Notes under the pieces: generated by a model
Database searches by the model: none
Told to the model about the DNA's origin: nothing
Seen by the model: only the letters and a program-made list of their open reading frames with translations
Part shown: piece by piece, positions 12,218 to 35,458 of the stretch
Position numbering within the stretch: the stretch's first letter is position 1
Layout of the letters: every line of letters begins with the position of its first letter
Made by a program: the position numbers and the translations under genes
NCBI GenBank assembly: GCA_038255915.1
Contig: JBBSKY010000001.1
Location: 15,268-79,267, forward strand
DNA: 64,000 nucleotides
Direction of reading: 5' to 3'
Source: Acidimicrobiales bacterium
GTDB lineage: Bacteria; Actinomycetota; Acidimicrobiia; Acidimicrobiales; JAUJNH01

Positions 12218-12223
12218 CGGGCG

Positions 12224-19076: not shown

Positions 19077-19777
19077 CAGCTTTCCTTCTTCTCTTCAGCG
19101 CCGGCCTTGGCCTCGTCGGCCTGGCGCTTGGCCTCGGCCTCCTCGGTGGCCTTCTTGGCCGCGGCCGCCCCGGCGGCCCGGTCGGCGATCTGGCCGGTGA
19201 CGATGGCCCGCTCCTCGGCGATGCGCTCGGGCGCCACCCGGAGGGAGCCCTCGCGCCGGACTCGGATGAGCGTGCCGTGGGAGGGGACCTGGTCGGCCAG
19301 GGCGCCGGCGGCCAGGTCGTCGATCAGCTGGTCGAAGTCGTCGTCGGCCAGGGGGCCGAAGTAGCGGTAGTTCACCTGGGCGCAGGGAGCCTTGTTGCAG
19401 TGGGCCACGCACTCCACCTCCTCCAGGGTGAACAGGCCGTCGGGGGTGGTGGCCCCGTGCTTGATGCCCAGGCGCTGCTCGGCGTGGTGCAGCAGCTCCT
19501 CGGCACCATCCAGCATGCAGGCGATGTTCGTGCAGATCCCCACCAGGTAGCGGCCCACGGGCTCGGTGTGGAACATGTCGTAGAAGCTGGCCACCGACAG
19601 CACCTCGGCCGGCAGCAGGCCGACCAGCTCGGCCACGTGCTCCATGCCGTCCTCGGAGAGGTAGCCGTCCTGCTCCTGCAGCACGTGCAGGAGCGGCAGC
19701 AGGGCGCTGCGGGGCTGGGGGTAGAGGGCCATCAGGTCGACGGCCCGCTTCTCGAACTCGGGCGCCAGACGGCTCAT
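19076..19777 (-). CDS. nuoE: NADH-quinone oxidoreductase subunit E
   Basis: YPQPRSALLPLLH..., ICTNIACML and VECVAHCNKAP 2Fe-2S ligands. Lys/Glu/Ala-rich C-terminal tail. Confidence 0.9.
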   Translation of the reverse strand: MSRLAPEFEKRAVDLMALYPQPRSALLPLLHVLQEQDGYLSEDGMEHVAELVGLLPAEVLSVASFYDMFHTEPVGRYLVGICTNIACMLDGAEELLHHAEQRLGIKHGATTPDGLFTLEEVECVAHCNKAPCAQVNYRYFGPLADDDFDQLIDDLAAGALADQVPSHGTLIRVRREGSLRVAPERIAEERAIVTGQIADRAAGAAAAKKATEEAEAKRQADEAKAGAEEKKES

Positions 19778-19787
19778 GTCGCACCCC

Positions 19788-21155
19788 TCATCTGTCGACC
19801 TCGCCCATGACGGGGTCGATCGAGCTGATGACGGCCACCGCGTCGGCGATGAGGCCGCCCCGAAGCATGACCGGCAGGCTCTGGAGGTTCACGAAGCTGG
19901 GGCCCCGGATATGCAGGCGGTAGGGCTTGGGCCCGCCGTCGGCCACCAGGTAGCAGCCCAGCTCCCCCCGGGGCGACTCGACGGCCACGTAGGTCTCCCC
20001 CTCGGGCACCTTGAAGCCCTCGGTGAAGAGCTTGAAGTGGTGGATGAGCGCCTCCATCGACTCGTCGATGCGGCTGCGGGGCGGCGGGGTGACCTTCTTG
20101 TCCTGCACCCGGTAGTCGCCCTTCGGCATCAGGTCGACGATCTGCTCGACGATGTGCAGGCTCTGGCGGATCTCCTCCAGGCGGATGGCGTAGCGATCGA
20201 AGGCGTCGCCGTAGGTGCCCACGATCACGTCGAACTCGACCTGGTCGTAGTACAGGTACGGGGCGTCGCGCCGCAGGTCCCAGTCGACCCCGGACGAGCG
20301 CAGCAGCGGCCCGGTAGCCGACAGGGCGATGGCCTGCTCGGGGGTGATGACCCCGACGCCCTGGGTGCGGTCGGTGAAGATCGGCTGGCCGGTGAGCAGC
20401 ACGTCGTACTCGTCGAGCCGAGGCGGCAGGACCTTGCACAGCTCGAGGACGTCGGCCTGCCAGCCGGCCGGCAGGTCGGCCGCCGAGCCGCCGGGGCGGA
20501 TGAAGTTGTGGTTCATCCGCAGACCGGTGACCTTCTCGAAGAACGACAGCACCAGCTCGCGCTCGCGCCAGCCGTAGATCATCATCGACACGGCGCCCAG
20601 GTCCATGCCGTTGGTGGCCATGAACAGCAGGTGGCTGGAGACGCGGTTCAGCTCCATCAGGAGCATGCGGATCCACACCGCCCGGGGTGGCAGCTCGACC
20701 CCGAGGAGCTCCTCGACGGCCATGGCGAACACGCTCTCGTTGAACAGCGGCGCCAGGTAGTCCATGCGGGTGACGTTGGTGCCGCCCTGGACGTAGGTGA
20801 GGTCCTCGCCGGTGCGCTCCATGCCGGTGTGGAGGTAGCCGATGACCGGCTTGGTCCGCAAGACGGTCTCGCCGTCGAGCTCGAGCATGAGGCGCAGCAC
20901 CCCGTGGGTGCTGGGGTGCTGAGGCCCCATGTTGATGATCATCGTCTCGTCCTCGCCCACCTCGGTGACGAGGTCGCCGGGGTCGAGGGTGATGCCCTCG
21001 GGCAGGCGGAGGGCGGCGCCGGTCTCGCGGAGCAGCTCGAGCGAGTCGGTGTCGGCCCGCCCGTGCATCTCCTGGGAGGGATCGAGGTCGCCGCTCGGCG
21101 CCAGGGCGTCGGTGGGCGGGACAGCGTCGGTGGGCAGGTGCCCGGTGGTGGCCAA
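19788..21155 (-). CDS. nuoD: NADH-quinone oxidoreductase subunit D
   Basis: NMGPQHPSTHGVLRL ... C-terminal SIDPVMGEVDR. A TTG at 21155 is preceded by GGAGGAG just after the nuoC stop. An alternative ATG (MHGRADTD) lies 90 nt downstream. Confidence 0.88.
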   Translation of the reverse strand: MATTGHLPTDAVPPTDALAPSGDLDPSQEMHGRADTDSLELLRETGAALRLPEGITLDPGDLVTEVGEDETMIINMGPQHPSTHGVLRLMLELDGETVLRTKPVIGYLHTGMERTGEDLTYVQGGTNVTRMDYLAPLFNESVFAMAVEELLGVELPPRAVWIRMLLMELNRVSSHLLFMATNGMDLGAVSMMIYGWRERELVLSFFEKVTGLRMNHNFIRPGGSAADLPAGWQADVLELCKVLPPRLDEYDVLLTGQPIFTDRTQGVGVITPEQAIALSATGPLLRSSGVDWDLRRDAPYLYYDQVEFDVIVGTYGDAFDRYAIRLEEIRQSLHIVEQIVDLMPKGDYRVQDKKVTPPPRSRIDESMEALIHHFKLFTEGFKVPEGETYVAVESPRGELGCYLVADGGPKPYRLHIRGPSFVNLQSLPVMLRGGLIADAVAVISSIDPVMGEVDR

Positions 21156-21163
21156 GGCTCCTC

Positions 21164-21672
21164 CTAGCGGGTGCTCGGCGCGGCGCGGAACTGGACGGGG
21201 ACCCGCCCGGGGGCCAGGTCCTTGCGGAGGGGGTGGCCCTCCCAGTCGTCGGGCAGCAGGATGCGGGTGGGGTCGGGATGGCCGCCGAAGATGATCCCCA
21301 TGAGGTCGTAGGCCTCGCGCTCCATGGCCTCGGAGCCGGGCCACAGCTGAAAGGCGGTGGGCACCGTGGTGTCGGCCTCGGGCACCTGGCACCGCACCCG
21401 CAGGTGGCGGTGGGTGGCCAGGTCGCGCACGGTGAGGACGACCTCGAAGCGCTCGGCCTCGATGCCGTCCGGCACGGTGCGGTCACCGTTGGTGAGCTGG
21501 TCGACGGCGCACAGGTCGGCGCAGAAGGCGTAGCCGTCGGCGTGAAGCGCCTGCAGCAGGCCCAGGTAGCGGGCGACGTCGGTGTGCACCACGGTGGTCC
21601 CCCGCACCTGCACGGCGGGCAGGCCGTGCAGGGTGAGCGGCTCGGCCGCAGCGACCTCAGTCGCCTGCTCGC

Positions 21673-21676
<4 letters not shown>
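21164..21676 (-). CDS. nuoC: NADH-quinone oxidoreductase subunit C
   Basis: [42 protein letters not shown]. The GTG start overlaps the nuoB stop (GTGA at 21673-21676). Confidence 0.85.
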
Positions 21677-22263
<587 letters not shown>

Positions 22264-22317
22264 GGGCCGGAGGCTAGGCCAGGGAGGGGGGTGGGAGGCG
22301 AAACGTCGGCCGGGGCC

Positions 22318-22770
22318 TCAGGCGGCTCGGTTGGGCCGGGTGACCTTGCGCACGGTGGTGCGGCTGGTGCGGGCCTGGCCGGCGGTCTCGGGGGCCACCG
22401 AGCGGCTGGTCTTGGAGGGACCCCAGTCGAGGGCGCCGTTGGACAGCAGGTAGGCGAACGACACGAAGACGGCCAGGGCGAAGACCACCATCTCCACCAG
22501 ACCGAAGAGGCCGAGCTGGTCGAAGATCACCGCCCACGGGTAGAGGAAGATGATCTCGATGTCGAAGATGATGAAGATCATGGCGATCAGGTAGAAGCGC
22601 ACCGGAAAGCGCTCGGCCGGCTCGTGGGAGGGCACGATGCCGCACTCGTACGGCGCCTCCTTGGCCAGCGTCGGCTTGCGCACGGCCAGCAGCCCGGGGA
22701 GGAAGGCGGCGGAGGCGGCGAAGACCATGCCGAGCGCCACCATGATGACCACGGGCAGGAAGCCGTCCAC
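22318..22770 (-). CDS. nuoA: NADH-quinone oxidoreductase subunit A
   Basis: YECGIVPSHEPAERFPVRFYLIAMIFIIFDIEIIFLYPWA is typical of NuoA/ND3. About 35 aa of basic C-terminal extension. Confidence 0.85.
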   Translation of the reverse strand: MDGFLPVVIMVALGMVFAASAAFLPGLLAVRKPTLAKEAPYECGIVPSHEPAERFPVRFYLIAMIFIIFDIEIIFLYPWAVIFDQLGLFGLVEMVVFALAVFVSFAYLLSNGALDWGPSKTSRSVAPETAGQARTSRTTVRKVTRPNRAA

Positions 22771-22780
22771 GGTCGGGACC

Positions 22781-23665
22781 CTAGGCGCGGGCGGGGGCGG
22801 CGCGGGAGGAGCCGGCCGCCTTGCGAGCCATGATCTCCTTGTCGCGCTGGTGCAGCGACCAGGTGGTCACGGCGAACACGACGAACCAGAAGAACGCGAA
22901 CATGGCCGGGGGGAAGCGCAGCGAGCCCCGGTCGCGCACCATGACGAGCGTCTGCGTCGGCTGCGACAGGTCGGGCCGGGCCTCCTCGGTGAGGTCCTCG
23001 GCGTTCAATTCCGGCGCCTTCTTCTGGACGGTGATGACCACCCGGTTGGCCGGTGCCCGGAACCAGCCGACCGGGTTGTACCAGGCGCCCTGCTTGAAGA
23101 AGCGGTGGTTCTTGATCTTGAACCAGACGCCAGCGTCACGGCCGCCGTGCTGGTAGGCCGCCACCTGCAGGTAGTCGTTGGGCGAGCCGTAGGGCGGCTG
23201 GAACTTCGGCGGCTCCTTGGTCTGGCCCTCGGGCGCCTCTCCGGTGTCGGGGGCCAACAGCTTGTCGGCCGCGGCGGTGGCGTCGCCCCGCACCGGGTCG
23301 CCCTGGGGCAGCTCGCGCCACCCTCCGGTGGGCTCCTCGCCGATGCGAGCGGGTAGCCCGTCGGTCCCCTCGCTGAGGGCGGCTGCGGGCGGCCCGGCGG
23401 CGATCTCGGTCGCCTTCCAGGACGGCTGGCGTCCGACCAGCCCGCCAGCGTTGAAGGTCCAGAGCAGGCCCAGCATGGCGCAGAAGCCGGAGAGCCCGGC
23501 CACGGTGATGAGGAATCCCACCCGTGCCCCGACGTTGGTGCTGGTGATGAGGAAGACGCTGCCGACCAGCACCGCCACCGCGAACAGCACGATGACGATG
23601 CCGCGGATCTGGGGGTCCCAGGAGAACTCGGCCAGGAGGGGGGCGGCGCCCAGGAGGAAGGTCAT
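22781..23665 (-). CDS. Uncharacterised membrane protein (two N-terminal TM segments, one C-terminal) lying between the cytochrome c gene and nuoA
   Basis: 294 aa. Hydrophobic segments IVIVLFAVAVLVGSVFLI, FLITVAGLSGFCAMLGLLW and AMFAFFWFVVFAVTTW flank a soluble domain of about 170 aa. 3-nt gap to the upstream gene and 10-nt gap to nuoA. No family recognised. Confidence 0.6.
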   Translation of the reverse strand: MTFLLGAAPLLAEFSWDPQIRGIVIVLFAVAVLVGSVFLITSTNVGARVGFLITVAGLSGFCAMLGLLWTFNAGGLVGRQPSWKATEIAAGPPAAALSEGTDGLPARIGEEPTGGWRELPQGDPVRGDATAAADKLLAPDTGEAPEGQTKEPPKFQPPYGSPNDYLQVAAYQHGGRDAGVWFKIKNHRFFKQGAWYNPVGWFRAPANRVVITVQKKAPELNAEDLTEEARPDLSQPTQTLVMVRDRGSLRFPPAMFAFFWFVVFAVTTWSLHQRDKEIMARKAAGSSRAAPARA

Positions 23666-23668
23666 GGC

Positions 23669-24715
23669 CTAGAGCGACCGCTCGTAGGCGACGATGGCGG
23701 CGATGTCCTCATCGCTGAGGACCTCGCCGAAGTAGGGCATGCCGCCGCCGGCGTCGTGGCCGATGCCGCCCTCGCCGTAGGGCTCGCCGTACTGGGCGCC
23801 CTCCTTGATGAACTCGATCATCTCCTCGACCTTCGGGAACTGACGGACGGTGGAGCCGTCACGCAGGTTGGGGCCGTAGCGACCGCCGCCCGAGACCTCG
23901 GGGCGGTTGAAGCTGAACCCACGGGTGTGGCAGCGGGCGCAGTTGCCGTTGAACAGGCTCTCGCCGTCGATCAGCGGCTCGCCGGCCAGATCGAGCTTGT
24001 CCGCCTTTCGGGCCTCGCCGGCCGCGTTGGCGAGGGCCTGGGCCTTCGCGGCCTCCGGATCGACCTTCAGCCCGTGGTCCTCGACGCTCGTCTGCATGAA
24101 CTGGACCAGATCCTCGATCTGTTGGTCGTTCATGGGGCCACCGCCCTTGATGCCCCACGCCGGCATGGGCGTGCCGGCCCGCCCGTAGACCAGGATCTGA
24201 CGGATCTGCTCGGTGCTGTAGCGGTAGGCCACGGTGTTGATGGCCGGCGCCGCCCAGGTCACCTGCTCGGTGCGGCCCAGGAAGTCGGTGATCGTGTACT
24301 TGGTCACCCCGCCGCCGCCGTCGGCCCCGTGGCAGGTGGCGCACCCGAAGTGGGCGCCGTGCTCAGGCGAGTCGGTGGGCTGGTACAGCGAGTGGCCCCG
24401 CTTCACCGCCCGGTTGTCGAAGCCCTTGATGGCGTTGACCTGCCGGCCCGACTCCATCACCCAGTAGGCGGGCAGCCCCACGGCGCTGACCGCGGTGAGC
24501 AGCAGGGCGACCCCGAGGGCGGCGTCGAGCTTCTTGGTCTCGAGCTGGTCGTCGTCGAAGTACGGCTTGCGGTTGGGGGCGAGCTCGATCTCCGAGCCTG
24601 GAGGGGCCCCGGCCTTCATGAGGTGGGTGATGAGGTAGCCGAGCCAGCCCAGGATGAGGACGGCGCCGATGACCACCCCCACCTTCTGCTGGCTGGAGAA
24701 CGCGGCGACGATCAT
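23669..24715 (-). CDS. Membrane-anchored dihaem c-type cytochrome (QcrC/PetX-like)
   Basis: Two CxxCH motifs (CATCH, CARCH), each followed by a Met-containing segment, plus two N-terminal TM segments. The ATG overlaps the Rieske gene stop (ATGA at 24712-24715). Confidence 0.85.
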
Positions 24716-25557
24716 GCGCAGTGGGGCCCTTCGATCTGCTGGCCCGTGGTGTCGGTGCCGATGGGGGGGCCGCTGATGACCGTGGCGGTGTCGACGACGA
24801 TGTCGCCGCCGTCGATCGAGATGGTGAAGTGGTCGCAGCCGCGAGGCGCCGGGCCACCCTTCTTCTCGCCCACCCGGTTGTACTGCGAGCCGTGGCACGG
24901 GCACTCGAACCACTGCGAGCTGGCGCACCACGGCACCCGGCAGCCCAGGTGCACGCACTTCTGGTAGATGGCCACGACCCCGGCCTCGAAGCCAGGGATC
25001 AGGGCCGAGTACGAGGCGACGCTCTTCGCCTTCTCGACGCCGGACTTCGGGTAGGGGTTGAGGTAGAACCGGCCCTCCGGGTTGTACACCGGCTCCTTGG
25101 TCTCGGCCATCTCGGCCAGGGCGTCGGTCAGGGGACCGACGGTGATCTTGGAGCCGAAGCCGCCCTTCAGCGTGGGCCACAGGAAGGCGATGCAGGCGGC
25201 CCCGAAGCCGGAGAGGGCGAAGGCGAACATCCCGCCCACGCTGCGGTTCAGGAACTGGCGGCGGGTGACGCCGAAGGCATCGGCGTCGAGCGGCTCCCGC
25301 AGGGCCACGGGGGCCGGCCGGGCCGGGGCCAGGTCGCCGCCGCGACGGGCCAGGGCCGAGGTGCGCTCGACCTCACGGCCGCTGGTGGCGAGCCCCCCGG
25401 CGGCGGTGTCGCCCATGGCCGGGTTGGCCTTGTCGCGCCTGGCGGTCTCACGGCTCACCGAGCCGGTGGCCCGCTCGCGATCGCGACGGGCGAAGGTCAC
25501 GGCGAGGAAGACGATGACCAGCACCGCAACCACGACGACGGCGACGACGAACAGCAC
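24712..25557 (-). CDS. Rieske 2Fe-2S subunit of a cytochrome bc/b6c complex
   Basis: CVHLGC...CPCHGS Rieske boxes. Twin-arginine-like TRRQFLN followed by a TM segment, plus one extra N-terminal TM segment. Confidence 0.88.
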
Positions 25558-25569
25558 GAACGGAGCCCC

Positions 25570-26265
25570 TTAGAGGTCGAAGATGTCGTGGACGCCCTGG
25601 CGCCACGGGAGGATGAAGTTGAAGCCTTCGCCCCGGAAGAACGAGCCGATGATCACGAGCACGGCCCAGAACATCATGAAGAAGGTGAACAGGGCGATGG
25701 CGAACTTCCGGTCTTCCGGCTTGTTCGACGGGTTCCGGTCGATGTAGCCGGCGACGGCCAGTCCGGCCATGCCCACCCCGGGGATGGCCACCCCGGCCAC
25801 CATCGGGTGGAACATCTTGAGCAGCTCCTGCAGCCCGAGGAAGTACCAGGGGGCCTTGGAGGGGTTGGGGGTGAGGTTGTAGTTGGCGGCGCCGAGCAGC
25901 GGCGCGTTCACGAAGACGGAGAAGACGAGCAGGAACGCGGTCATGGCCAGCACCGAACAGAACTCGACGACCAGCAGGTGGGGCCAGACGTGCACCTTGT
26001 CGGTGGGCACCGCCTTGACGTCCTGGATCGACCCCGCCTTGACGACGGTGAGCAGGCGCTGGGTGTGCCCGGTGGCGCCCACGCTGGGCGGCGGGGCGGC
26101 GGGGCGGGTGGCCTCGGCCGTGGCGGCCGGGCGCTCGGCGGTGGCCACGGCCGAGCCGCTGTCCTTGGGCGCGGCGTCTTCGGCGCCGCCCCCCTCCTTC
26201 TTGGCCAGCGCCGCATCGCGGGCGGCCTGAGCCCGCTTCAGCAGGTGCTCGGGGATCTCACCCAT
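25570..26265 (-). CDS. Cytochrome b C-terminal domain / b6f subunit IV-like protein with a long N-terminal extension
   Basis: NPSKAPWYFLGLQELLK (PEWYF-type motif) and three TM segments. About 85 aa of cytoplasmic Ala/Pro-rich N-terminal extension beginning MGEIPEHLLKR. Confidence 0.8.
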   Translation of the reverse strand: MGEIPEHLLKRAQAARDAALAKKEGGGAEDAAPKDSGSAVATAERPAATAEATRPAAPPPSVGATGHTQRLLTVVKAGSIQDVKAVPTDKVHVWPHLLVVEFCSVLAMTAFLLVFSVFVNAPLLGAANYNLTPNPSKAPWYFLGLQELLKMFHPMVAGVAIPGVGMAGLAVAGYIDRNPSNKPEDRKFAIALFTFFMMFWAVLVIIGSFFRGEGFNFILPWRQGVHDIFDL

Positions 26266-26295
26266 GGTCTGCTCTCCTCCCCTTCGCGCACACGA

Positions 26296-27081
26296 TCACA
26301 ACGGACCTGAGATCCCGCCGTCCTTGCGGACCCGCCAGAAGTGGACCGCCATGAAGATGACGATCACGAACGGGAACATCAACACGTGCAGGACGTACCA
26401 TCGCAGCAGCGTCTCCGGCCCGATCTCCACGCCGCCGAGCAGCACGAAACGGACCTGGGAGCCCACCACAGGTGAGTAGCCGATCATGTTGGTGCCCACG
26501 GTCACCGCCCACAGCGCCAGCTGGTCCCAGGGCAGCAGGTACCCCGTGAACGACAGCAGCAGGGTGAGGGTCAGCAGGATGACGCCGATGACCCAGTTGA
26601 ATTCCCGCGGCGCCTTGTAGGCGCCGTGGTAGAAGACCCGCGCCATGTGCAGGAACACGCTGATCACCATGAGGTGGGCGCCCCATCGGTGCATGTTTCG
26701 TACGAGCAGCCCGAACGTGACCGAGGTGTGGAGCGCTTTGATGTCGTTCCAGGCCTGCACGTCGGTCGGTCGGTAGAAGAACATCAAGAAGATGCCCGTG
26801 ACCGTGAGGATGATGAAGAGGAAGAACGACAGGCCGCCGAGGCACAGCGTGTAGCTGACCTTGACGGCGTGGCGCTTCACCTTGACCGGGTGCAGGTGGT
26901 ACAGCACCGAGTTCATGACCACGTAGGACCGGTTCCTCGGGCTGTCGGTGTAGCCCTTGCGGAACACCGATCCGGGCCGGAAGATCGAGTTCCACACCTG
27001 GCCGCCCTGGACCTTGGTCCAGGTCTGGCTGAGCCGCTGCCCCGGGCTGAGGTGGGGCTTGTCTTCGAGTCGCTTGGCCAT
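26296..27081 (-). CDS. Cytochrome b6-type (N-terminal, four-helix) cytochrome b
   Basis: 261 aa. ...CLGGLSFFLFIILTVTGIFLMFFY..., RNMHRWGAHLMVISVFLHMARVFYHGAYK, and LLSFTGYLLPWDQLALWA: haem-ligand His pairs with cytochrome b spacing. Confidence 0.88.
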   Translation of the reverse strand: MAKRLEDKPHLSPGQRLSQTWTKVQGGQVWNSIFRPGSVFRKGYTDSPRNRSYVVMNSVLYHLHPVKVKRHAVKVSYTLCLGGLSFFLFIILTVTGIFLMFFYRPTDVQAWNDIKALHTSVTFGLLVRNMHRWGAHLMVISVFLHMARVFYHGAYKAPREFNWVIGVILLTLTLLLSFTGYLLPWDQLALWAVTVGTNMIGYSPVVGSQVRFVLLGGVEIGPETLLRWYVLHVLMFPFVIVIFMAVHFWRVRKDGGISGPL

Positions 27082-27095
27082 CGAACCTCAGTCTC

Positions 27096-27509
27096 CTAGA
27101 ACCGCATGCCGTAGCCGTAGCCGTGCTTGTTGTCTCTGCCGTGGGGGTCGCCCTCACGGGCGGCGACGCCGACCTTGCCCATGACGATGACCCCGGTGGG
27201 GCACCGGTCGACGCACAGGCCGCACCGGGTGCACACGTCCTCGTCGACCACGAAGATCACGTGGTCGTCGGGGTCGTCGCCGGGAAGCTCGGTGTTGTCG
27301 GCCTCGGCCACCGTGCCGGCCGACAGCATGTGGATGCACTTCCACGGGCAGATGTCTACGCAGCCCTCGCACATGATGCACTCGGCCTGGTCGATGTGCA
27401 GGAACTGCTTCGGCTTCACCGCCCGGGTGAGGGCGCTGGTGTCGATCTCGGTGAGGGTGTACTCGCCCGGGAACAGCGGCAGCGGCGGGTTGGCATCGGT
27501 CTTGGCCAT
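27096..27509 (-). CDS. 2x[4Fe-4S] ferredoxin-like protein encoded inside the bc cluster
   Basis: CIMCEGCVDICP and CTRCGLCVDRCP (CxxCxxCxxxCP twice), separated by an insert of about 45 aa. Trimmed to MAKTDANPP (ATG at 27509). 4-nt gap to the upstream gene and 14-nt gap to the downstream gene. Confidence 0.8.
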   Translation of the reverse strand: MAKTDANPPLPLFPGEYTLTEIDTSALTRAVKPKQFLHIDQAECIMCEGCVDICPWKCIHMLSAGTVAEADNTELPGDDPDDHVIFVVDEDVCTRCGLCVDRCPTGVIVMGKVGVAAREGDPHGRDNKHGYGYGMRF

Positions 27510-27513
27510 GGCC

Positions 27514-28041
27514 TTACACCTGCGCCTTCTGGAGAGGGCGCCCGTAGGCGCTGGTGGTGAGCGCCTCGCGCTCGGCCCGCTGCTTGGCCACCTTGCCTCG
27601 CTTCTGCCAGAAGGCCCACAGCGTGAACTGGGCGGCCAGCATCCCGATGTAGATGGTGGCACCGATGATGTCACGGAAGTGCTCGGCGTTGAGCAGGATC
27701 CGGCCCCGGCCGAAGAAGGTGAGCCCGTTCGGCCACATGACGCCCTTGTCCACCGGGATGAACCAGAGGGCCTTGCCGGGCTTGCCGTCCCAGATCGCCC
27801 CGAGGGGGCCGAGGGGGATCCCCACCTTGTCCCGCCGCCACGCCAACCCGGTGTCGGCCCAGTCGAGCCAGTAGTGCGGGATGAGGCCGTAGGCCAGGAT
27901 GAAGCCGAAGAAGACCCAGGCGGCGGCGACGAAGGCCTCGCCCCAGGTGAGGGGCTGGCCCGGGGGCCGACGGCGCGCCACCGCGAACACGACGCCAACG
28001 ACGAGAAGCCCGCCGAGGATGGAGGAGACGAAGGCCGTCAC
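27514..28041 (-). CDS. Uncharacterised membrane protein (about 3 TM), first gene of the bc cluster
   Basis: VTAFVSSILGGLLVVGVVFAV..., AAAWVFFGFILAYGLIPHYW..., IIGATIYIGMLAAQFTLWAFW. GTG at 28041 with an upstream AGGAG. The start is uncertain and no family was recognised. Confidence 0.55.
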   Translation of the reverse strand: MTAFVSSILGGLLVVGVVFAVARRRPPGQPLTWGEAFVAAAWVFFGFILAYGLIPHYWLDWADTGLAWRRDKVGIPLGPLGAIWDGKPGKALWFIPVDKGVMWPNGLTFFGRGRILLNAEHFRDIIGATIYIGMLAAQFTLWAFWQKRGKVAKQRAEREALTTSAYGRPLQKAQV

Positions 28042-28211
28042 GGTGGTGTTGAAGCTCCTGGCATGGTGCTCGTGATTCGCTGCACAAAGTGTACCGGTGA
28101 GTCCGGGGGATGTCCCACCCGAGGCCAGATGGTCTACCACCGGGCCCGCCCAGAGGGCACATCGTCGCCCGGTTGGTACCCCCCATCCGACCACGACTAC
28201 CTTGCGCAGCG

Positions 28212-28847
28212 ATGGCTGAGATCCCCGAGCACCTCCTGCGGCGGTCGAAGGAGCGCCGAGCGGCCCTCTCTGACGAGGCGCCCTCCGCCGAGGCACCGGC
28301 CGAAAGCGACCCCCCCGCCGGGGCTGCGGCAGCTCCTGCGGCCTCGGCCAAGCCGGCCGCGGCGGCCGCCCCGGCCAAGGCTGCCGCGCCCTCCCTGCCG
28401 ACCGTGGCTCCCCAGCCCAAGCCACCGGCCGTCGGGATCCTCCCGCCCTCCAAGGCCCGGCTGCCCTTCTGGGTCACCCCGCTCTTCGCCGCCCTCCCGG
28501 TCTTCGGCTTCTTCTACATGAACGGCTACCAGACCCGACCGGTCGAGGGCCCCACCGACCCGCTCGTCCTCGGCGCCGAGATCTACCGCTCCGCCGGCTG
28601 CTCCGGCTGCCACGGCGGCGCCGGCGAGGGCGGTGTCGGCCCCAAGCTCAACGAGGGCGAGTCCCTCCTGTCCTTCCCCGAGGAGCAGGACCAGATCGAC
28701 TGGGTGAAGGGCGGCTCCCAGCCCCTGATCGGCCAGGTGTACAACGCCCAGGGTCGGGTGGCCGCCGGCGGCATGCCCGGCTTCGCCGGCCAGCTGAGCG
28801 ACGAGGAGATCGAGGCCGTCGTCCTGTACGAGCGGGAGCAGCTCTAG
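28212..28847 (+). CDS. Membrane-anchored monohaem c-type cytochrome, divergent from the bc cluster
   Basis: A single CSGCH motif plus a distal GGMPGF Met ligand region. One TM segment (LPFWVTPLFAALPVFGFFYM). The N-terminus MAEIPEHLLRR is followed by an Ala/Pro-rich linker. Confidence 0.8.
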   Translation: MAEIPEHLLRRSKERRAALSDEAPSAEAPAESDPPAGAAAAPAASAKPAAAAAPAKAAAPSLPTVAPQPKPPAVGILPPSKARLPFWVTPLFAALPVFGFFYMNGYQTRPVEGPTDPLVLGAEIYRSAGCSGCHGGAGEGGVGPKLNEGESLLSFPEEQDQIDWVKGGSQPLIGQVYNAQGRVAAGGMPGFAGQLSDEEIEAVVLYEREQL

Positions 28848-29125
28848 GGCCTCGGGCCTCGGGCCTTCGGCCTCGGCCTGACTGCCTGGACGGCCTTCGG
28901 CCGGCTGCCTTGTTGTTTCGACGAGGCGATGCTCCTTCGTCGCCGCCTCGTCGACGTGGCGGCGAACATTAGGTGCCGCGCCAGGTCTGACTTCTGTTCC
29001 TCCGAGTTCGCCGCCACGCGGTGCAACCTGGGAATCGATCGGCTGGTGGGTGAAGCCGCAGGCCGGGCAGCCCGCAGGGCCGGCAGCCCGCAGGGCCGGG
29101 CGCAGCACTGGGTACGGTCGCTGGC

Positions 29126-30196
29126 GTGGGTGACGTGGTCGAACAGGTGCGGGAGGTGGCCGAGGGGCTGCTGGTGCCGACGGCGGAGGAGACCGACCGG
29201 GCCGAGCGGGTGCCCGAGGGGCACCTTCGGGCCCTGGCCGCAGCGGGGGCGTTCGGGATCCTGCAGTCGCTCGAGCCGGTGGAGCGGCGGGAGGTCCACC
29301 GGATCCTCGGCGGGGCCTGCGGGGCCACCTCGTTCGTGTGGGCCCAGCACGAGGGGCCGGTGCGCATCATCTCGGCCTCCGGCAACGAGGCCCTGAAGGC
29401 CCGCTGGCTGGACGGGCTGCAGGCCGGCGACGTGATCGGCGGCACGGCCTTCGCCCACCTGCGCCGCCCCGGGCCGGCCCTGGTGCGGGCAGAGCCCGAT
29501 GGGACAGGCTGGCGCCTGCACGGCGAGGCGCCGTGGGCGACGGGGTGGGGCATGGCCGGGGTGTACTCCATCGGCGCCTACACCCCGACCGGCTCGGTGC
29601 TTTGGGTGCTCCTCCCCCCAGACCGTCTCACCGCCACCCCACCCCTCGACCTGGCCGTGCTGCAGGCTACCGCCACCGTCCGCCTCCGCTTCGACAGCAC
29701 CCTGGTCGCCGCCGACGACGTGGCCTTCGAGCTCGACCGGGCCCTGTGGGACGCCCTCGACGCGTCGATCGGCAACCGGGGTAACCCGGCGGTGCAGGGC
29801 GTGGCCCGGCGCGCCCTGGCCCTGCTGGAGGCCAGCGGACCGGCCGGCGCCGACCTCTCCGGTGCCTTGGGCCCGGCGGTCGATCGGACCATCGCCGAGA
29901 ACGAGGCGCTGATCGAGGCGGCCGACGCCGGCCAGGTCGACGTGCCCGCCCTGGCCGCGGCCCGGGCCGGTTCCATCGAGCTGGCCCAGCGAGCCACCCT
30001 GGCCCTCCTGGCCGCGGTGGGCGGTCGGGGCGTGGAGCGGGGCCATCCCGCCCAGCGCCTGGTGCGCGAAGCCGCCTTCTACGCCATCCAGGGCCAGACC
30101 ACCGAGGGCAAGGCGGCGGCGCTGGCCCTGGCCGCCACAGCCTCGGGGAGAGCCGGCGACAGCACGACCTTGCGGGCCGCACAACAGGATCCGTGA
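29126..30196 (+). CDS. Acyl-CoA dehydrogenase-family protein
   Basis: 356 aa. ACAD-like layout (..TSFVWAQHEGP.., ..GGTAFAHLRRPG..GWRLHGEAPWATG..). GTG start. Specificity unknown. Confidence 0.6.
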   Translation: MGDVVEQVREVAEGLLVPTAEETDRAERVPEGHLRALAAAGAFGILQSLEPVERREVHRILGGACGATSFVWAQHEGPVRIISASGNEALKARWLDGLQAGDVIGGTAFAHLRRPGPALVRAEPDGTGWRLHGEAPWATGWGMAGVYSIGAYTPTGSVLWVLLPPDRLTATPPLDLAVLQATATVRLRFDSTLVAADDVAFELDRALWDALDASIGNRGNPAVQGVARRALALLEASGPAGADLSGALGPAVDRTIAENEALIEAADAGQVDVPALAAARAGSIELAQRATLALLAAVGGRGVERGHPAQRLVREAAFYAIQGQTTEGKAAALALAATASGRAGDSTTLRAAQQDP

Positions 30197-30289: not shown

Positions 30290-31555
30290 TCAGCGCACCG
30301 TCGCGCAGGCGGCAGCGAACCGCTCGATGGTCTGGTCGACGACTGCGTCGTCGTGGGCCAGGCTGGAGAACAGCACCTCGTAGGGACCGGGAGCCAGGGC
30401 AACGCCCCGGTCGAGCAGGGCCCGGAACAGGCGAGCGTAGAGGCCGGTTTCGGCCGCCGCCTTGGCGCCGGGCCAGGCCGTGACGGCAGTCTCGGCGCCG
30501 GCGAACAGGCCGACCAGGGTGCGGTAGCGGGGCACCTGGACGGCCAGGCCGGCGGTCGCCGCCACCTCCTGCAGGCCGACCTGGAGCCGGGTGGCGGTGG
30601 CCTCGAGCCGCTGGTAGGCGGCGGCGTCGAGCTGGCCGAGGGCGGCCAGGCCGGCGGCGGTGGCCAGGGGGTTCCCGCTGAGGGTGCCCCCCTGGTACAC
30701 CGGCCCGAGGGGGGCCACGTTGGCCATCAGCTCGGCGCTGGCCCCGAACATCCCGACAGGCAGGCCGCCGCCGATGACCTTGCCGAAGCACCACAGGTCG
30801 GGCGCCACACCCGTGGTCTCGGTGGCGCCCCCCACCGCCACCCGGAACCCGGTGATCACCTCGTCGAACAGCAGCAGGGCGCCGGCCGCGTCGCAGGCCT
30901 GCCGCAGGCCCTCCAGGAACCCGGGTGCCGGGGGGACCAGGCCCATGTTGGCGGCCACCGGCTCGACGCAGACGACCGCCACCTCCTCGGTCACCTCGGG
31001 CACCTCGTTGTAGGGGACCACCAGCGTGTCGGCCACCACCGCGACGGGGACGCCGGCCGAGCCGGGGAGGCCCTGGTTGGCCACGCCGCTGCCGGCGGCG
31101 GCCAGCAGGGCATCGGCGTGGCCGTGGTAGCAGCCGTCGAACTTGATGATCCTGGTGCGCCCGGTGGCGCCCCGGGCCAGGCGGATGGCGCTCATCGTGG
31201 CCTCGGTGCCGCTGCTGGTCATCCGCACCATGCCGAGGCCCGGCACCCGCCGGCACACCTCCTCGGCCAGCAGCACCTCGGCCTCGGTGGGCGCCCCGTA
31301 GGTCGTGCCCCGAGCGGCCGCCTCCTGGACGGCGCTGACCACGGCGGGGTGGGCGTGGCCCAGGATGCTGGCCCCGTAGGACTGCACGTAGTCGACCAGC
31401 ACCCGGCCGTCGGTGTCCCACACGCACGCCCCCTCGCCCCGGGCCACGAAGTACGGCGTCCCCCCGCCGACGCTGCGAAACGACCGCACCGGCGAGTTCA
31501 CCCCCCCAGGCAGAACCGCCTGCGCCCGCGCCCACAGCTCTTCGTTCCTCGACAT
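30290..31555 (-). CDS. hemL: Glutamate-1-semialdehyde 2,1-aminomutase
   Basis: LPGGVNSPVRSFRSVGG, YVQSYGASILGHAHP, FDEVITGFRV, CFGKVIGGGLPVG (PLP Lys context). Confidence 0.92.
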   Translation of the reverse strand: MSRNEELWARAQAVLPGGVNSPVRSFRSVGGGTPYFVARGEGACVWDTDGRVLVDYVQSYGASILGHAHPAVVSAVQEAAARGTTYGAPTEAEVLLAEEVCRRVPGLGMVRMTSSGTEATMSAIRLARGATGRTRIIKFDGCYHGHADALLAAAGSGVANQGLPGSAGVPVAVVADTLVVPYNEVPEVTEEVAVVCVEPVAANMGLVPPAPGFLEGLRQACDAAGALLLFDEVITGFRVAVGGATETTGVAPDLWCFGKVIGGGLPVGMFGASAELMANVAPLGPVYQGGTLSGNPLATAAGLAALGQLDAAAYQRLEATATRLQVGLQEVAATAGLAVQVPRYRTLVGLFAGAETAVTAWPGAKAAAETGLYARLFRALLDRGVALAPGPYEVLFSSLAHDDAVVDQTIERFAAACATVR

Positions 31556-31598
31556 CGCACCCGAGCCTACGAGGGCGCCTGAAGCCCGCGGCCGTCCG

Positions 31599-33386
31599 CT
31601 ACAGCTGATCGGCCGACAGGGCGAAGAGGTCGTCCTTGCCGGCGGTGATGGTGGGGAGGAGGCCGTGGCCGGTGGGGAGGATGTGGTGGGCGAAGAAGCG
31701 GGCGGTGGCCACCTTGGCCTCGGCGAAGCCCGCTGGCAGGGTGGCGGCGGCGCCGGTGGCGGCCAGGGCCTCGACCCCGAGGAGCCAGCCGCCCACCACC
31801 TGGCTGAACAGGCGGAGGTAGGGAGTGGCGGCGGCCAGGGCCTGCACCGGGTCGGCGGCGCCGTTGGCCACGACCCAGTCGGTGGCCTGCTGCAGGACGT
31901 CGAGGCCGTCGGCCAGGGCGACGCCGATGGAGGCCAGGTCCTCGACGCCCTGCAGCTCGCCGGCGGTCGCCCGCATGCGGGCCACCAGGTCGGCCACCAC
32001 GCCGCCGCCCCGCATCGGCAGCTTGCGGCCCACCAGGTCCATGGCCTGGATGCCGTTGGTGCCCTCGTAGATGGCGGTGATCCGGGCGTCGCGATACAGC
32101 TGGGCCACCCCGGTCTCCTCGATGAAGCCCATGCCCCCGAAGACCTGGATGGCCAGGCTGGTGACCTCGTTGGCCAGATCGGTGCCCCAGCCCTTGGACA
32201 TCGGCGTGAGGAGGCCCGCCAGCTCGACGGCGGCGGTCCGCTCGGCCTGTTCGGGGTGGTGGCGGCCCAGGTCGATCTGGCGGGCGTCGAAGTAGTGGAG
32301 GGCCCGCAGGGCCTCGGTGGACGACCGCATCGTCATGAGCATCCGCCGGACGTCGGCGTGGTCGACGATGGCCGAGGGTCCGGTCCCGGCGGCGCCGGGG
32401 GCCCGGCCCTGGCGTCGGTCCCGGGCGTGCTGGCGGGCCCGCTGGTAGGCCGCCTCGCACAGGCCGAGGCCCTCGACGCCCACGCTGAGCCGGGCGTTGT
32501 TCATCATCGTGAACATCGAGCGCATCCCGGTGTTCTCGTCGCCGATGAGGGTGCCGACGGCCTCGTCGAACTCGAGGACGCAGGTGGGGCTGGCCCGGAT
32601 GCCCAGCTTGTGCTCGACCGACACGACTTTCACGCCGTTGCGGGCCCCGAGCGAGCCGTCGGCCTGGACAAGGTGCTTGGGGACGAGGAAGCAGCTGACG
32701 CCCCGGGTGCCCGGGGGGCTGTCGGGCGTGCGGGCCAGCACGAGGTGGATGATGTTCTCGGCCAGATCGTGCTCGCCGTAGGTGATGTAGATCTTGGTGC
32801 CGCTGATCCGGTAGGTGCCGTCGTCGGCGGGCACCGCCCGGGTGCGCAGGGCGCCGACGTCGGAGCCGGCGTCGGGCTCGGTCAGGTTCATGGTGCCCGT
32901 CCAGCGGCCGCTCACCATGTTGGGCAGGTAGGCGTTCTTCTGCTCGTCGCTGCCGTGGGCGTGGAGCAGGTCGAGGGCGCCCTGGGTCAGCAGGGGGGCC
33001 AGGGCGAAGGCCAGGTTGCCGCTGTTCAGCACCTCCTGCATGGCCACGCCGACCACCCAGGGAAAGCCGCCGCCGCCGAAGTCCGGGTCCGCGGCCACCG
33101 TGCCCCACCCGGACTCGACGTACTGGGCGTAGGCCTCCTTGAACCCATCAGCGGTGACCACCGTCGGGTCGTCTGCGGTGCCGGCGACGCGGCTGCCCTG
33201 TTCGTCGCCGACCCGGTTGGTGGGCGCCACCTTGTCGACCACGAACCGCCCGAACTCGCCGAGCACCTCCATCGTGGCGTCAGGATCGGCGTGGTCGAAC
33301 CCGTTGAGCGTGCTGAGCTCGGCCAGCCCGGCCACGTGCTCGAGCACGAACCGGATCTCTTCGAGCGGCGGCGCGTAATCAGCCAT
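31599..33386 (-). CDS. Large acyl-CoA dehydrogenase (about 600 aa, FadE5/AidB-like architecture)
   Basis: 595 aa. MADYAPPLEEIRFVL..., LTEPDAGSDVG, GEHDLAENIIHLVLAR, IYEGTNGIQAMDLVGRK, followed by the long C-terminal helical domain of this subclass. Confidence 0.85.
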   Translation of the reverse strand: MADYAPPLEEIRFVLEHVAGLAELSTLNGFDHADPDATMEVLGEFGRFVVDKVAPTNRVGDEQGSRVAGTADDPTVVTADGFKEAYAQYVESGWGTVAADPDFGGGGFPWVVGVAMQEVLNSGNLAFALAPLLTQGALDLLHAHGSDEQKNAYLPNMVSGRWTGTMNLTEPDAGSDVGALRTRAVPADDGTYRISGTKIYITYGEHDLAENIIHLVLARTPDSPPGTRGVSCFLVPKHLVQADGSLGARNGVKVVSVEHKLGIRASPTCVLEFDEAVGTLIGDENTGMRSMFTMMNNARLSVGVEGLGLCEAAYQRARQHARDRRQGRAPGAAGTGPSAIVDHADVRRMLMTMRSSTEALRALHYFDARQIDLGRHHPEQAERTAAVELAGLLTPMSKGWGTDLANEVTSLAIQVFGGMGFIEETGVAQLYRDARITAIYEGTNGIQAMDLVGRKLPMRGGGVVADLVARMRATAGELQGVEDLASIGVALADGLDVLQQATDWVVANGAADPVQALAAATPYLRLFSQVVGGWLLGVEALAATGAAATLPAGFAEAKVATARFFAHHILPTGHGLLPTITAGKDDLFALSADQL

Positions 33387-33420
33387 CCGCGGACGCTACC
33401 CGCCTCCTAGCCGAGGCGGA

Positions 33421-34422
33421 TCACGATCCCGGGGGGCGGCCCAAGAGGAGCTCGGCGGCTTCGGCGGCGAGGTAGGTGAAGATGAGGTCGGCGCCGGCGC
33501 GCTTGATCGAGGTGAGGTGCTCGAGGGCCACGGCGTCGTGGTCGATCCAGCCCCGCTCGGCGGCCGCCTTGAGCATGGAGTACTCGCCGCTGACGTGGTA
33601 GGCGGCGACGGGGATGTCGACCGCGACCCGCACCGCAGCGATGACGTCGAGGTAGGCGAGCGCTGGCTTCACCATGACCACGTCGGCCCCCTCGTCGAGG
33701 TCGAGCTGGACCTCGGCGAGCGCCTCACGCCGGTTGCGGGGGTCCTGCTGGTAGCCCCGGCGGTCGCCGCCGCCGGCGATGCTGACGTCAACGGCGTCCC
33801 GGAAGGGGCCGTACAGGGCCGAGGCGTACTTGGCCGCGTAGGCCACGATCGCCACCTGCTGGTGGCCGCCGCCGTCGAGGGCCCGGCGGATGGCGGCGAC
33901 CTGGCCGTCCATCATCCCCGAGGGGGCGCACACGTCGGCTCCTGCGTCGGCCTGGGCCAGGGCCACCTGGCTGTACAGCTCGAGGGTGCGGTCGTTGTCG
34001 GGCTGGCCGCTGGCATCGAGCACCCCGCAGTGGCCGGAGTCGGTGTACTCGTCGAGGCAGAGGTCGGCCATGAGGACGAGGGCGTCGCCCACCTCGTCCC
34101 GCACGTCGCGCAGGGCCAACTGCACGATCCCGTCGGGGGCGAAGGCCTGGCTGCCCTCGGCATCCTTCACCGTCGGCACCCCGAACACCAGCAGGCCGGG
34201 AACGCCGAGATCGACTAGGCGGCGGGCCTCCTTTCGCAGGCTGTCCCGGGTGTGCTGGACGACGCCGGGCAGCGACCCGATGGGCCGGGGCTCGTCGATC
34301 CCCTGACGGACGAAGGCCGGCAGGACGAGGTCGTCGACGCCGAGCCGGGTCTCGGCCACGAGGCGGCGCAGGGCCGGCGTGCGCCGCAGCCGCCGCATGC
34401 GCCGCTCTGGAAAGGACATCAC
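33421..34422 (-). CDS. hemB: Porphobilinogen synthase (delta-aminolevulinate dehydratase)
   Basis: RRMRRLRRTPALRRLVAE, PSGMMDGQV, VMVKPALAYLD (Schiff-base Lys), AYHVSGEYSM. Confidence 0.92.
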   Translation of the reverse strand: MMSFPERRMRRLRRTPALRRLVAETRLGVDDLVLPAFVRQGIDEPRPIGSLPGVVQHTRDSLRKEARRLVDLGVPGLLVFGVPTVKDAEGSQAFAPDGIVQLALRDVRDEVGDALVLMADLCLDEYTDSGHCGVLDASGQPDNDRTLELYSQVALAQADAGADVCAPSGMMDGQVAAIRRALDGGGHQQVAIVAYAAKYASALYGPFRDAVDVSIAGGGDRRGYQQDPRNRREALAEVQLDLDEGADVVMVKPALAYLDVIAAVRVAVDIPVAAYHVSGEYSMLKAAAERGWIDHDAVALEHLTSIKRAGADLIFTYLAAEAAELLLGRPPGS

Positions 34423-34477
34423 GGCGAGGCTACGGCCCGCCGCCGCCCAGTCTGAACATATGCCTTACCATAGGCCG

Positions 34478-35401: not shown

Positions 35402-35458
35402 GGGGCCTCGCTTTCCGGTCGGTCGAACCGCGGTTGGGGCCCCTTCGCGGCCCTGCGC

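Follow-up and report, generated by a model that had tools for sequence, protein, structure and literature searches.

The 64,000-nucleotide stretch of DNA analysed here (the window) comes from an Acidimicrobiales bacterium (contig JBBSKY010000001.1, positions 15,268 to 79,267) and contains a seven-gene module in which a small 2x[4Fe-4S] ferredoxin and two orphan membrane proteins, termed unkN and unkC, are encoded together with a split, b6-type Rieske/cytochrome b complex. In three lineages of Actinomycetota the ferredoxin gene lies directly 5′ of the cytochrome b6 gene, wherever the available sequence suffices. We infer from sequence that the ferredoxin is probably a stably bound, true redox subunit of the complex, and its association, cofactor occupancy and electron pathway are deduced in the same way. 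Genes in the window were called from a listing of open reading frames (ORFs) combined with inspection of start codons, and families were assigned by Pfam and NCBIfam profile searches. The module consists of the following genes.

27514-28041, minus strand: unkN, 175 residues, GTG start, orphan membrane protein
27096-27509, minus strand: ferredoxin (fdx), 137 residues, 2x[4Fe-4S], Fer4 families
26296-27081, minus strand: cytochrome b6, 261 residues, Pfam Cytochrome_B, four-helix
25570-26265, minus strand: subunit IV (suIV), 231 residues, Pfam Cytochrom_B_C, three transmembrane (TM) helices
24712-25557, minus strand: Rieske [2Fe-2S] protein, 281 residues, Pfam Rieske
23669-24715, minus strand: dihaem cytochrome c, 348 residues, membrane-anchored, two cytochrome c stretches in Pfam
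22781-23665, minus strand: unkC, 294 residues, orphan membrane protein

An initial annotation, made from the sequence alone, had described seven tightly packed minus-strand genes between 28041 and 22781, and the ORF listing and start codons place all of them there. From unkN to unkC the junctions are, in order, gaps of 4, 14, 30 and 12 nucleotides, a 4-nucleotide ATGA overlap in which the start of the dihaem cytochrome c gene lies on the Rieske stop codon, and a gap of 3 nucleotides. The five identities that could be assigned agree with Pfam and NCBIfam, in which unkN and unkC have no family. The ORFs and Pfam likewise bear out the division of cytochrome b into b6 and subunit IV, unlike the single long QcrB of model actinobacteria, and both of the CxxCxxCxxxCP motifs reported for the ferredoxin are seen. 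Whether the ferredoxin, unkN and unkC accompany the b6, suIV and Rieske genes had been left to a comparison of gene neighbourhoods; they do so in the Acidimicrobiia and in two more lineages of Actinomycetota.

A scan with an unkN alignment, using one genome per GTDB species, located relatives in 162 genomes. The best 80 of these 162 relatives and three further contigs form a set of 83 Acidimicrobiia loci, in which the window proteins were searched by tblastn; presence counts take in only the loci with enough downstream DNA. The labels of the best 80 loci are nearly all Acidimicrobiia, Acidimicrobiales, Microthrixaceae, Iamiaceae, or the broader Actinomycetota/Actinomycetes. Gene order and strand are identical in all Acidimicrobiia loci (unkN-fdx-b6-suIV-Rieske-cytochrome cc-unkC-nuoA, the last being the first gene of complex I). 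The ferredoxin is found in 74/74 loci, b6 in 63/63, suIV in 60/60, the Rieske protein in 58/58, the dihaem cytochrome c in 56/56, and unkC and nuoA each in 51/51. In addition, a divergently transcribed cytochrome c gene, cytc1, is present in 78 of the 83 loci. With every related locus of sufficient length keeping the order, the gene arrangement is conserved well above chance expectation. Median identities to the window proteins are 84% for b6, 76% for the ferredoxin, 72% for suIV, 56% for both the Rieske protein and nuoA, 41% for unkN, 40% for cytochrome cc and 35% for unkC, so that the ferredoxin is the second most constrained protein of the set, behind b6.

A second lineage, comprising 80 metagenome loci of 63-74% G+C, was recovered in a scan seeded with diverged relatives of the ferredoxin. 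In the loci with room 3′ of the ferredoxin gene, b6 (51/51), suIV (44/44), the Rieske protein (31/31) and a cytochrome c (27/27) follow, and an unkC-like gene is detected next by tblastn in 16 of 23 loci; nuoA is found in none of 21. The ORF 5′ of the ferredoxin encodes a diverged unkN (hhalign 94.6%, E 7e-8) and the ORF 3′ of the cytochrome c an unkC homologue (hhalign 97.9%, E 6e-13). In a third lineage a still more diverged ferredoxin occurs in the same seven-gene arrangement, with analogous unkN- and unkC-like genes. There the module lies downstream of ccmABCDEF and beside a COX1+FixO (cbb3-like) oxidase, and the unkN-like and ferredoxin genes overlap by 4 nucleotides, whereas they are separated by 4 nucleotides in the window. 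Among the 160 loci recovered via unkN or the ferredoxin, b6 adjoins the ferredoxin wherever the sequence suffices. Because the second and third lineages keep the module with different flanks and without nuo genes, the conserved unit is, as judged from these comparisons, the seven-gene module, the nuo fusion, the divergently transcribed cytochrome c and the Rex-type box described below being features of the Acidimicrobiia lineage.

The second and third lineages differ from the window in some further details. The second lineage varies in the cytochrome c that follows the Rieske protein, which is a monohaem protein of ∼220-250 residues with one CxxCH in five loci (L087, L096, L130, L157 and L161) and a dihaem protein of ∼340 residues in two others (L111 and L113); the ORF starts are automatic and some may be truncated. 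The flanks of the second lineage contain CcdA/ResA/ResB-like System II genes (L087 5941-6711, L111 12734-15673, L161 6610-7371), and those of the third lineage the System I genes ccmABCDEF together with the COX1+FixO oxidase (L164/L165 3500-8300). The module therefore travels with differing cytochrome c biogenesis systems. Apparent fusions of the ferredoxin to b6 and long variants in the representative library (for instance P0322, P0256 and P0284) were discarded, their sequences looking like frameshifted calls from error-prone assemblies.

The b6 protein matches Pfam Cytochrome_B with 157 bits and contains the two histidine pairs for haems bL and bH. Its closest solved structure in a search of the Protein Data Bank (PDB) is chloroplast/cyanobacterial b6 (E 1e-47), followed at a distance by mycobacterial QcrB (E 1e-23), and all four haem-ligand histidines align with those of spinach and Chlamydomonas b6. 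Cys80, in the CxGG motif TLCLGG, aligns with Cys35, the covalent ligand of haem cn/ci, and is retained without exception by 59 orthologues and by the second and third lineages. On the strength of the CxGG cysteine, b6 is probably of the haem-ci type, haem ci itself being putative. In addition, b6 carries an N-terminal extension of ∼25 residues that is near-invariant in the three lineages (W[KN]S[IV]FRPGS.[FY]R.GY.D..R[DN]R). The extension is missing from chloroplast b6 and from the NCBIfam cytb_ExtP equivalog model, whose alignment begins at residue 55 and whose cut-off of 290 bits is passed by the window protein with 304 bits. By homology with b6 the extension is placed on the cytoplasmic side, and it is an obvious candidate for the docking surface of the ferredoxin.

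Subunit IV has three predicted TM helices and, as its Qo motif, an invariant APWY; its long N-terminus is cytoplasmic and opens with IPEHLLKR. The stretch NPSKAPWYFLGLQELL is invariant in the window and in eight of nine selected loci of the second and third lineages, the ninth having an N to S change. The Rieske boxes read CVHLGC and CPCHGSQY in the window and C[VA]HLGCRVP and CPCHGS.YN across all lineages; an internal Tat motif, TRRQFL (RRxF[LF]), precedes the TM helix. The CPCHGSQY box presumably matches the S-Y box of b6f-type Rieske proteins, as known from plant b6f sequences. According to a rule quoted in PMC4122944, the S-Y signature (CPCHGS.Y) predicts a potential above 260 mV, and the Rieske protein of the module is therefore predicted to have a high-potential centre. 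Cultured Iamiaceae contain the menaquinones MK-9(H6/H8) (PMC12263773). The dihaem cytochrome c binds its haems through two CxxCH motifs, CATCH and CARCH. Taken by its sequence features, the core is a split Rieske/cytochrome b complex of the APWY clade and resembles a b6c complex; the clade assignment is based on the APWY motif and on ExtP as the best NCBIfam model.

The N-termini of suIV (26238-26265) and cytc1 (28212-28245) share the peptide M[GA]EIPEHLL[KR]R[AS], the N-terminal motif of cytc1 being MAEIPEHLLRRS, and in both proteins an Ala/Pro-rich linker and the first TM helix lie downstream of it. In six-frame translations of the 83 Acidimicrobiia loci the IPEHLL peptide occurs 145 times, always at the N-terminus of suIV or cytc1 and often duplicated in suIV, and it is absent from the second and third lineages. 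It may be a cytoplasmic docking peptide common to suIV and cytc1.

The two CxxCxxCxxxCP motifs of the ferredoxin are CIMCEGCVDICP and CTRCGLCVDRCP, and the protein matches Fer4 and Fer4_7. None of its eight cluster cysteines is replaced in 69 orthologues or in the distant relatives, throughout the three lineages. A ninth cysteine following the first motif (CPW.C) and a methionine three residues further on (CPWKCIHM, residues 55-61) are also invariant in the three lineages and lie outside the canonical 2x[4Fe-4S] ligand set; they could serve in cluster tuning or in an inter-subunit contact. Motif searches and TM prediction show neither a Sec/Tat signal nor a TM helix, so the ferredoxin is predicted to be cytoplasmic. 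Both its N- and C-terminal extensions are conserved. Besides the Acidimicrobiia orthologues, an exhaustive HMMER search with the ferredoxin as query recovered full-length relatives at 38-49% identity, and the family signature comprises an N-terminal DY.L..VD..WL, then C.D.CPW.C[IL].M and then FV.DD..CTRC..CV.RCP. In their sources, these relatives are from 'Actinomycetota bacterium' and are named '4Fe-4S binding protein', 'PreA subunit' or 'NuoI-like'; the JGI name is 'dihydropyrimidine dehydrogenase PreA subunit'.

The nearest relatives of the ferredoxin with a solved structure in the PDB are polyferredoxins (MvhB, FwdF), NuoI/NdhI and PscB, none of which is tied to a bc complex. Proteins of the PsaC/PscB/NuoI type are likewise small 2x[4Fe-4S] proteins that form a two-cluster wire on the N-side of a membrane redox complex. 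The ferredoxin is a distant match to them, with a likeness that is confined to the ferredoxin core (E 1e-5 to 1e-3), and differs in having its own N- and C-terminal extensions and the CPW.C..M signature. The possibility that it is a displaced NuoI was rejected, as it scores 45.5 bits against a cut-off of 113 bits for TIGR01971 and a separate nuoI is present at 13188-13808.

The two orphan proteins flank the redox genes of the module. The AlphaFold2 model of unkN (predicted local distance difference test score, pLDDT, 81) shows three TM helices and a small periplasmic loop, and the alignment reveals an invariant cytoplasmic C-terminal SAYGRPL tail. That of unkC (pLDDT 78) shows two N-terminal TM helices, a periplasmic α/β domain of ∼170 residues and a C-terminal TM helix. 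For unkN 479 homologues were found, nearly all unnamed or hypothetical, and for unkC 243, all unnamed or hypothetical; the taxon-labelled ones are Acidimicrobiales for unkN and Acidimicrobiales/Acidimicrobiaceae for unkC. PDB profile searches and Foldseek gave nothing significant for either protein (best Foldseek E 0.85 for unkN and 0.11 for unkC), and their alignments display no conserved His/Cys/Met pattern pointing to a cofactor. None of the accessory subunits of solved supercomplexes matches unkN or unkC. The unkN protein is proposed to be a membrane anchor or partner of the ferredoxin. The initial annotation had allowed for the ferredoxin, unkN and unkC belonging to well-characterised, unrelated families; Pfam, NCBIfam, PDB sequence and profile searches and Foldseek place them outside such families.

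Parts of this system have known counterparts. The APWY clade was defined by Kao & Hunte 2014 (PMC4122944) for cytochromes b of delta-proteobacteria, Chloroflexi, Nitrospirales, Planctomycetes and some actinobacteria; according to that paper, the clade has no biochemically characterised member, and reverse operation is suggested for it. The window shares with the clade the split cytochrome b, APWY in place of PEWY/PDWY, and the CxGG cysteine for a putative haem ci. The usual context of this cysteine in the clade is WCMGG, whereas the window and its relatives have TLCLGG/TFCLGG. The same paper lists a split APWY or PEWY cytochrome b for Ilumatobacter (Acidimicrobidae) and for Rubrobacteridae. 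The paper treats cytochrome b and Rieske sequences only, and no associated ferredoxin, three-TM protein or 294-residue protein was found in the part available. Earlier it had been supposed that the cluster could mark an undescribed variant of complex III. This does not apply to the split cytochrome b, already published for Ilumatobacter (PMC4122944), and it stands for the ferredoxin and the two orphan proteins, of which no description was found. Nor was a description found in the literature of a ferredoxin subunit in an actinobacterial or Acidimicrobiia bc complex, a search in which subscription journals were poorly covered and which leaves the absence unproven.

The actinobacterial QcrCAB complex (Mycobacterium, Corynebacterium, Streptomyces; CIII2CIV2) belongs to the same phylum, has the same role as menaquinol:cytochrome c oxidoreductase, and resembles the window in its dihaem cytochrome c and in the internal Tat motif of its Rieske protein. 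However, QcrB is a single long cytochrome b that lacks the haem ci cysteine, whereas cytochrome b is split here and contains CxGG. An assignment to QcrCAB was rejected, the three NCBIfam Qcr models scoring far below their cut-offs (120/500, 21.5/275 and 28/200 bits). The resemblance to b6f includes the four histidines, Cys35 for haem cn and the aligned C-terminal ...GISGPL of b6, and the three helices of suIV. In contrast, b6f has a cytochrome f and the Qo motif PEWY, where the module has a dihaem cytochrome c and APWY, and a true b6f complex was discarded as a candidate (b6 model PRK03735 212 against 325 bits, PetC 65 against 250 bits, no cytochrome f). Furthermore, ferredoxin and FNR are at most transient partners of b6f (PMC5600118), whereas here the ferredoxin gene is fixed in the operon.

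ExtOPQ of Geobacter, from the extHIJKLMNOPQS cluster, is also of the APWY-type group. Although b6 passes the ExtP cut-off, Geobacter ExtP lacks the first ∼54 residues of the window protein. The ext cluster encodes the multihaem cytochromes ExtKL, ExtM, ExtN and ExtS, the porin ExtI and a rhodanese-like protein, and no ferredoxin (PMC5877670). A Geobacter-type Ext system was rejected, as suIV resembles ExtQ weakly (49 against 150 bits) and the locus has no multihaem cytochromes or porin. The automatic name for b6 is likely to be 'selenite/tellurite reduction operon b-type cytochrome', which in the absence of ext-type genes is a misnomer. Against the reverse operation suggested for APWY complexes, ordinary aerobic respiration is indicated by the genes to which the module is linked, namely nuo, those for cytochrome c maturation and those of a cbb3-like oxidase.

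By analogy, the closest counterparts are the Rieske/cytochrome b complexes of the anammox bacterium Kuenenia stuttgartiensis (Kuste4569-4574 and Kustd1480-1485). These are of the b6/suIV type with a haem cN and a high-potential Rieske protein, and possess an extra subunit at the cytoplasmic side with a [4Fe-4S]/[3Fe-4S] chain that is modelled 15-20 Å from the N-side haems (PMC12954380). The chain is proposed to carry a low-potential electron out of the complex, allowing the reduction of a low-potential acceptor (PMC12954380). In the anammox complexes the N-side subunit is an oxidoreductase of large size that binds FAD and NAD(P), whereas the module has a bare dicluster ferredoxin of 137 residues, and none of the seven window proteins matches a Pfam domain for binding flavin or nucleotides. 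Moreover, the anammox complexes have multihaem or HAO-like partners, in contrast to the P-side dihaem cytochrome c, unkN and unkC of the module, and the hosts differ as well, the module occurring in respiring heterotrophs; the likeness is functional and does not imply membership of one family. Hence both the split APWY cytochrome b in Acidimicrobiia and, with the anammox flavoprotein, the concept of an N-side iron-sulphur module were already known, and no description was found of the conserved combination of a minimal ferredoxin and two orphan membrane proteins with a split b6-type complex in respiring Actinomycetota.

As proposed here, the products of the seven genes would make up a single respiratory enzyme of the APWY clade, a menaquinol:cytochrome c oxidoreductase of the b6c type with three extra subunits. 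Its redox parts would be b6 with haems bL, bH and probably ci, suIV, the Rieske protein and the dihaem cytochrome c. The ferredoxin would lie on the cytoplasmic (N) face, probably held by unkN, whose gene appears to be translationally coupled to the ferredoxin gene, and by the conserved N-terminal extension of b6. In this position it would link haem bH/ci, at which the low-potential chain ends, with the cytoplasm, a role comparable to that of PsaC in photosystem I, while unkC would be a supernumerary subunit on the P-side and in the membrane. In the exit direction, the Rieske protein with its high-potential signature would oxidise menaquinol at Qo and leave behind a very low-potential electron, which would then pass from bL via bH/ci and the two iron-sulphur clusters to a cytoplasmic acceptor, in place of quinone reduction at Qi. 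Such a ferredoxin exit branch in complex III is tentatively put forward as the best explanation of the observations as a whole.

The exit direction, taken by itself, is a possibility that falls somewhat short of even. It is favoured because menaquinol oxidation by a high-potential-type Rieske protein implies that the potential of the bL/bH chain is very low, and because the same argument has been made for the anammox complexes with their N-side iron-sulphur flavoprotein (PMC12954380). A number of considerations weigh against the proposed enzyme and its exit branch. Gene adjacency would also be expected of a factor for assembly or of a soluble carrier under shared regulation, the S-Y rule estimates the Rieske potential heuristically from sequence, and moving electrons toward the N side opposes the membrane potential. 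Those members of these lineages that have been cultured live as heterotrophs under aerobic or microaerophilic conditions (see also PMC12263773) and have no obvious need for quinol-driven ferredoxin reduction. Finally, the same anatomy suits the opposite direction, and every anatomical argument for exit serves entry equally. In that case electrons from a low-potential cytoplasmic donor, which could be a flavoenzyme or the soluble ferredoxin that 2-oxoacid:ferredoxin oxidoreductases reduce, would flow through the ferredoxin clusters and haem ci/bH to menaquinone at Qi, making the module a ferredoxin:menaquinone reductase within complex III and a respiratory counterpart of the proposed ferredoxin-to-b6f cyclic route. 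Haem ci of b6f has indeed been proposed to take electrons from ferredoxin (Dibrova et al. 2017, PMC5600118), and entry would be thermodynamically downhill and would suit heterotrophic metabolism better. Yet no donor gene is conserved beside the module, the flanks of which vary among the three lineages, and the retention of APWY and of the high-potential-type Rieske signature would be left unexplained; entry is rated as unlikely. An electron-branching complex III that would run in either direction, with haem ci as the gate between the quinone pool and low-potential iron-sulphur chemistry in the cytoplasm, is conceivable, and not yet to be called probable.

Two further explanations dispense with electron transfer between the ferredoxin and b6. 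The ferredoxin, unkN and unkC, all or some of them, might be biogenesis factors for haem ci attachment, for iron-sulphur delivery to the Rieske protein or for membrane insertion, co-transcribed with the complex for stoichiometric supply. Attachment of haem ci in chloroplasts depends on dedicated membrane proteins, the CCB proteins, and known haem ci maturation genes were not seen in the loci examined. The constancy of the accessory genes in the operon would agree with this role, their membership of the complex being deduced, and so would the lack of cofactor-like conserved His/Cys/Met residues in unkN and unkC. But the conservation of the ferredoxin exceeds that of the catalytic subunits, the Rieske protein and cytochrome c, its gene keeps its place between those of unkN and b6 in all three lineages, and b6 has a matching conserved N-side extension, whereas assembly factors are usually less constrained and often encoded elsewhere. 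In addition, we know of no role of a dicluster ferredoxin in thioether haem attachment, and an account of the three proteins as biogenesis factors seems improbable. It is still harder to see them as hitch-hikers in the operon, that is, as a soluble carrier ferredoxin and unrelated unkN and unkC proteins that are co-regulated with respiration and serve, for example, haem biosynthesis, menaquinone biosynthesis or complex I, with no link to the bc complex. The position of the window cluster between haem biosynthesis genes and nuo, and the generic annotation of the ferredoxin in its sources, would fit such a role. However, in the second and third lineages the module remains intact and its order unchanged with no adjacent nuo or hem genes, the nuo operon already has its NuoI, and among the 160 loci b6 stands beside the ferredoxin at every one with enough sequence, which makes mere hitch-hiking very improbable. 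It is because of its conservation across three lineages with different flanks that the ferredoxin is more likely to be a subunit than to have an assembly role or to be simply co-regulated.

In the Acidimicrobiia the module is joined to further respiratory genes and to a putative regulatory site, listed below.

22318-22770, minus strand: nuoA, Pfam match, first gene 3′ of unkC
12224-22770, minus strand: nuoA-nuoK (complex I), Pfam match for every gene, own nuoI at 13188-13808
28212-28847, plus strand: cytc1, membrane-anchored monohaem cytochrome c, Pfam Cytochrom_C and Cytochrome_CBB3
28070-28087, strand not given: Rex-operator-like inverted repeat TCGTGATTCGCTGCACAA between the divergent genes unkN and cytc1, 29 nucleotides 5′ of the unkN start

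nuoA starts 10 nucleotides past the unkC stop codon and is directly followed by nuoB to nuoK without interruption. The ORF and Pfam listing confirms the reported string of 18 co-directional genes, consisting of the seven module genes and nuoA-K. The accompanying view that complexes III and I form one string is correct for the window, with the restriction that the nuo fusion is confined to the Acidimicrobiia lineage and lies outside the conserved module. Pfam also supports the divergent monohaem cytochrome c, the start of which, from a comparison of orthologues, is probably the ATG at 28212 rather than the alternative upstream ATG at 28110.

The inverted repeat TCGTGATTCGCTGCACAA is the only match in the window, at up to three mismatches, to the Rex consensus TTGTGAANNNNTTCACAA, from which it differs at three positions; the consensus and the footprinted sites are those of Streptomyces (PMC5355995). 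Within 300 nucleotides 5′ of unkN, a Rex-like site with a score of at least 11/14 occurs in 78 of 82 related loci, mostly 12-65 nucleotides from the start, against a background of 30 such sites in 1.16 Mb elsewhere in these loci. Typical forms are ATGTGA...TTCACGA and TTGTGA...TTCACGA. In Streptomyces avermitilis, footprinted Rex sites lie upstream of nuoA1-N1, atpI (TTGTGATACGGTTCACGA), cydA1 and rex-hemAC1DB (PMC5355995). The equivalent box in Streptomyces is located directly upstream of nuoA, and that in the window precedes unkN, with which the bc-nuo string begins. A gene for a Rex-type protein is present in the window at 39983-40633. Termination of transcripts between the genes of the ferredoxin or the two orphan proteins and the bc or nuo genes had been raised as a possibility; a sequence scan found no terminator-like site on the coding strand at any of the module junctions, and a single plus-strand site 3′ of the divergent cytochrome c. 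A scan of 21500-29500 for sigma-70-like consensus promoters gave none, a result that is uninformative for an actinobacterium of 70% G+C. Rfam has no RNA element in the cluster, its sole match in the window being a tRNA at 62021-62094. The conserved Rex-like box, the coding strand free of terminators, the Streptomyces precedent and the rex-like and hem genes upstream together suggest one transcription unit in the Acidimicrobiia, running from unkN into nuo under the control of Rex and thereby of the NADH/NAD+ state. They fit such a unit and do not prove it; co-transcription and Rex binding are read from the sequence.

Upstream of the cluster, the region 30290-40633 contains hemL, hemB, cobA-hemD and hemC together with the Rex-type regulator, the hem genes being interspersed with two acyl-CoA-dehydrogenase-like genes (29126-30196 and 31599-33386). 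Haem biosynthesis, complex III and complex I genes adjoin each other in the window and therefore form one respiratory neighbourhood. At its other end the nuo string is interrupted between nuoK and nuoL (10719-12224) by an insert of ∼1.5 kb with plus-strand ORFs, beyond which nuoL, nuoM and nuoN are located, and nuoL-N would therefore need a promoter of their own. Two of the insert ORFs show coding-like G+C content at third codon positions, i.e., 10737-11264 and 11298-12044, the latter with a weak match to the nucleotidyltransferase family DUF6036 (E 8e-4).

Rieske/cytochrome b complexes rank with the best-studied energy-converting enzymes. The purpose of their haem ci is an open question, and so is whether electrons at the level of ferredoxin enter or leave at the N side. 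The N-side question underlies both the debated cyclic route from ferredoxin to b6f and the proposed NAD(P)H-producing anammox complexes. In the present analysis of three lineages of Actinomycetota, a haem-ci-type b6 is constantly accompanied in its operon by a highly conserved dicluster ferredoxin; the second and third of these lineages occur commonly in metagenomes from soil and freshwater. The families concerned include cultured aerobes (Iamiaceae and, according to PMC4122944, Ilumatobacter), so that the complex could be purified and the link between iron-sulphur clusters and haem measured. The analysis also places three protein families of some size, whose members are mis-named or labelled 'hypothetical', in a functional context, flags a likely mis-annotation as ExtP, and suggests that complexes III and I of the Acidimicrobiia are one Rex-controlled expression unit. 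If the proposal is true, this would be the first b6-type complex with a hard-wired connection between ferredoxin and haem ci. With electrons entering, reduced ferredoxin would feed menaquinone through haem ci; with electrons leaving, ordinary aerobes would carry out a quinone-based bifurcation that yields a soluble low-potential product and is pulled by cytochrome c and oxygen.

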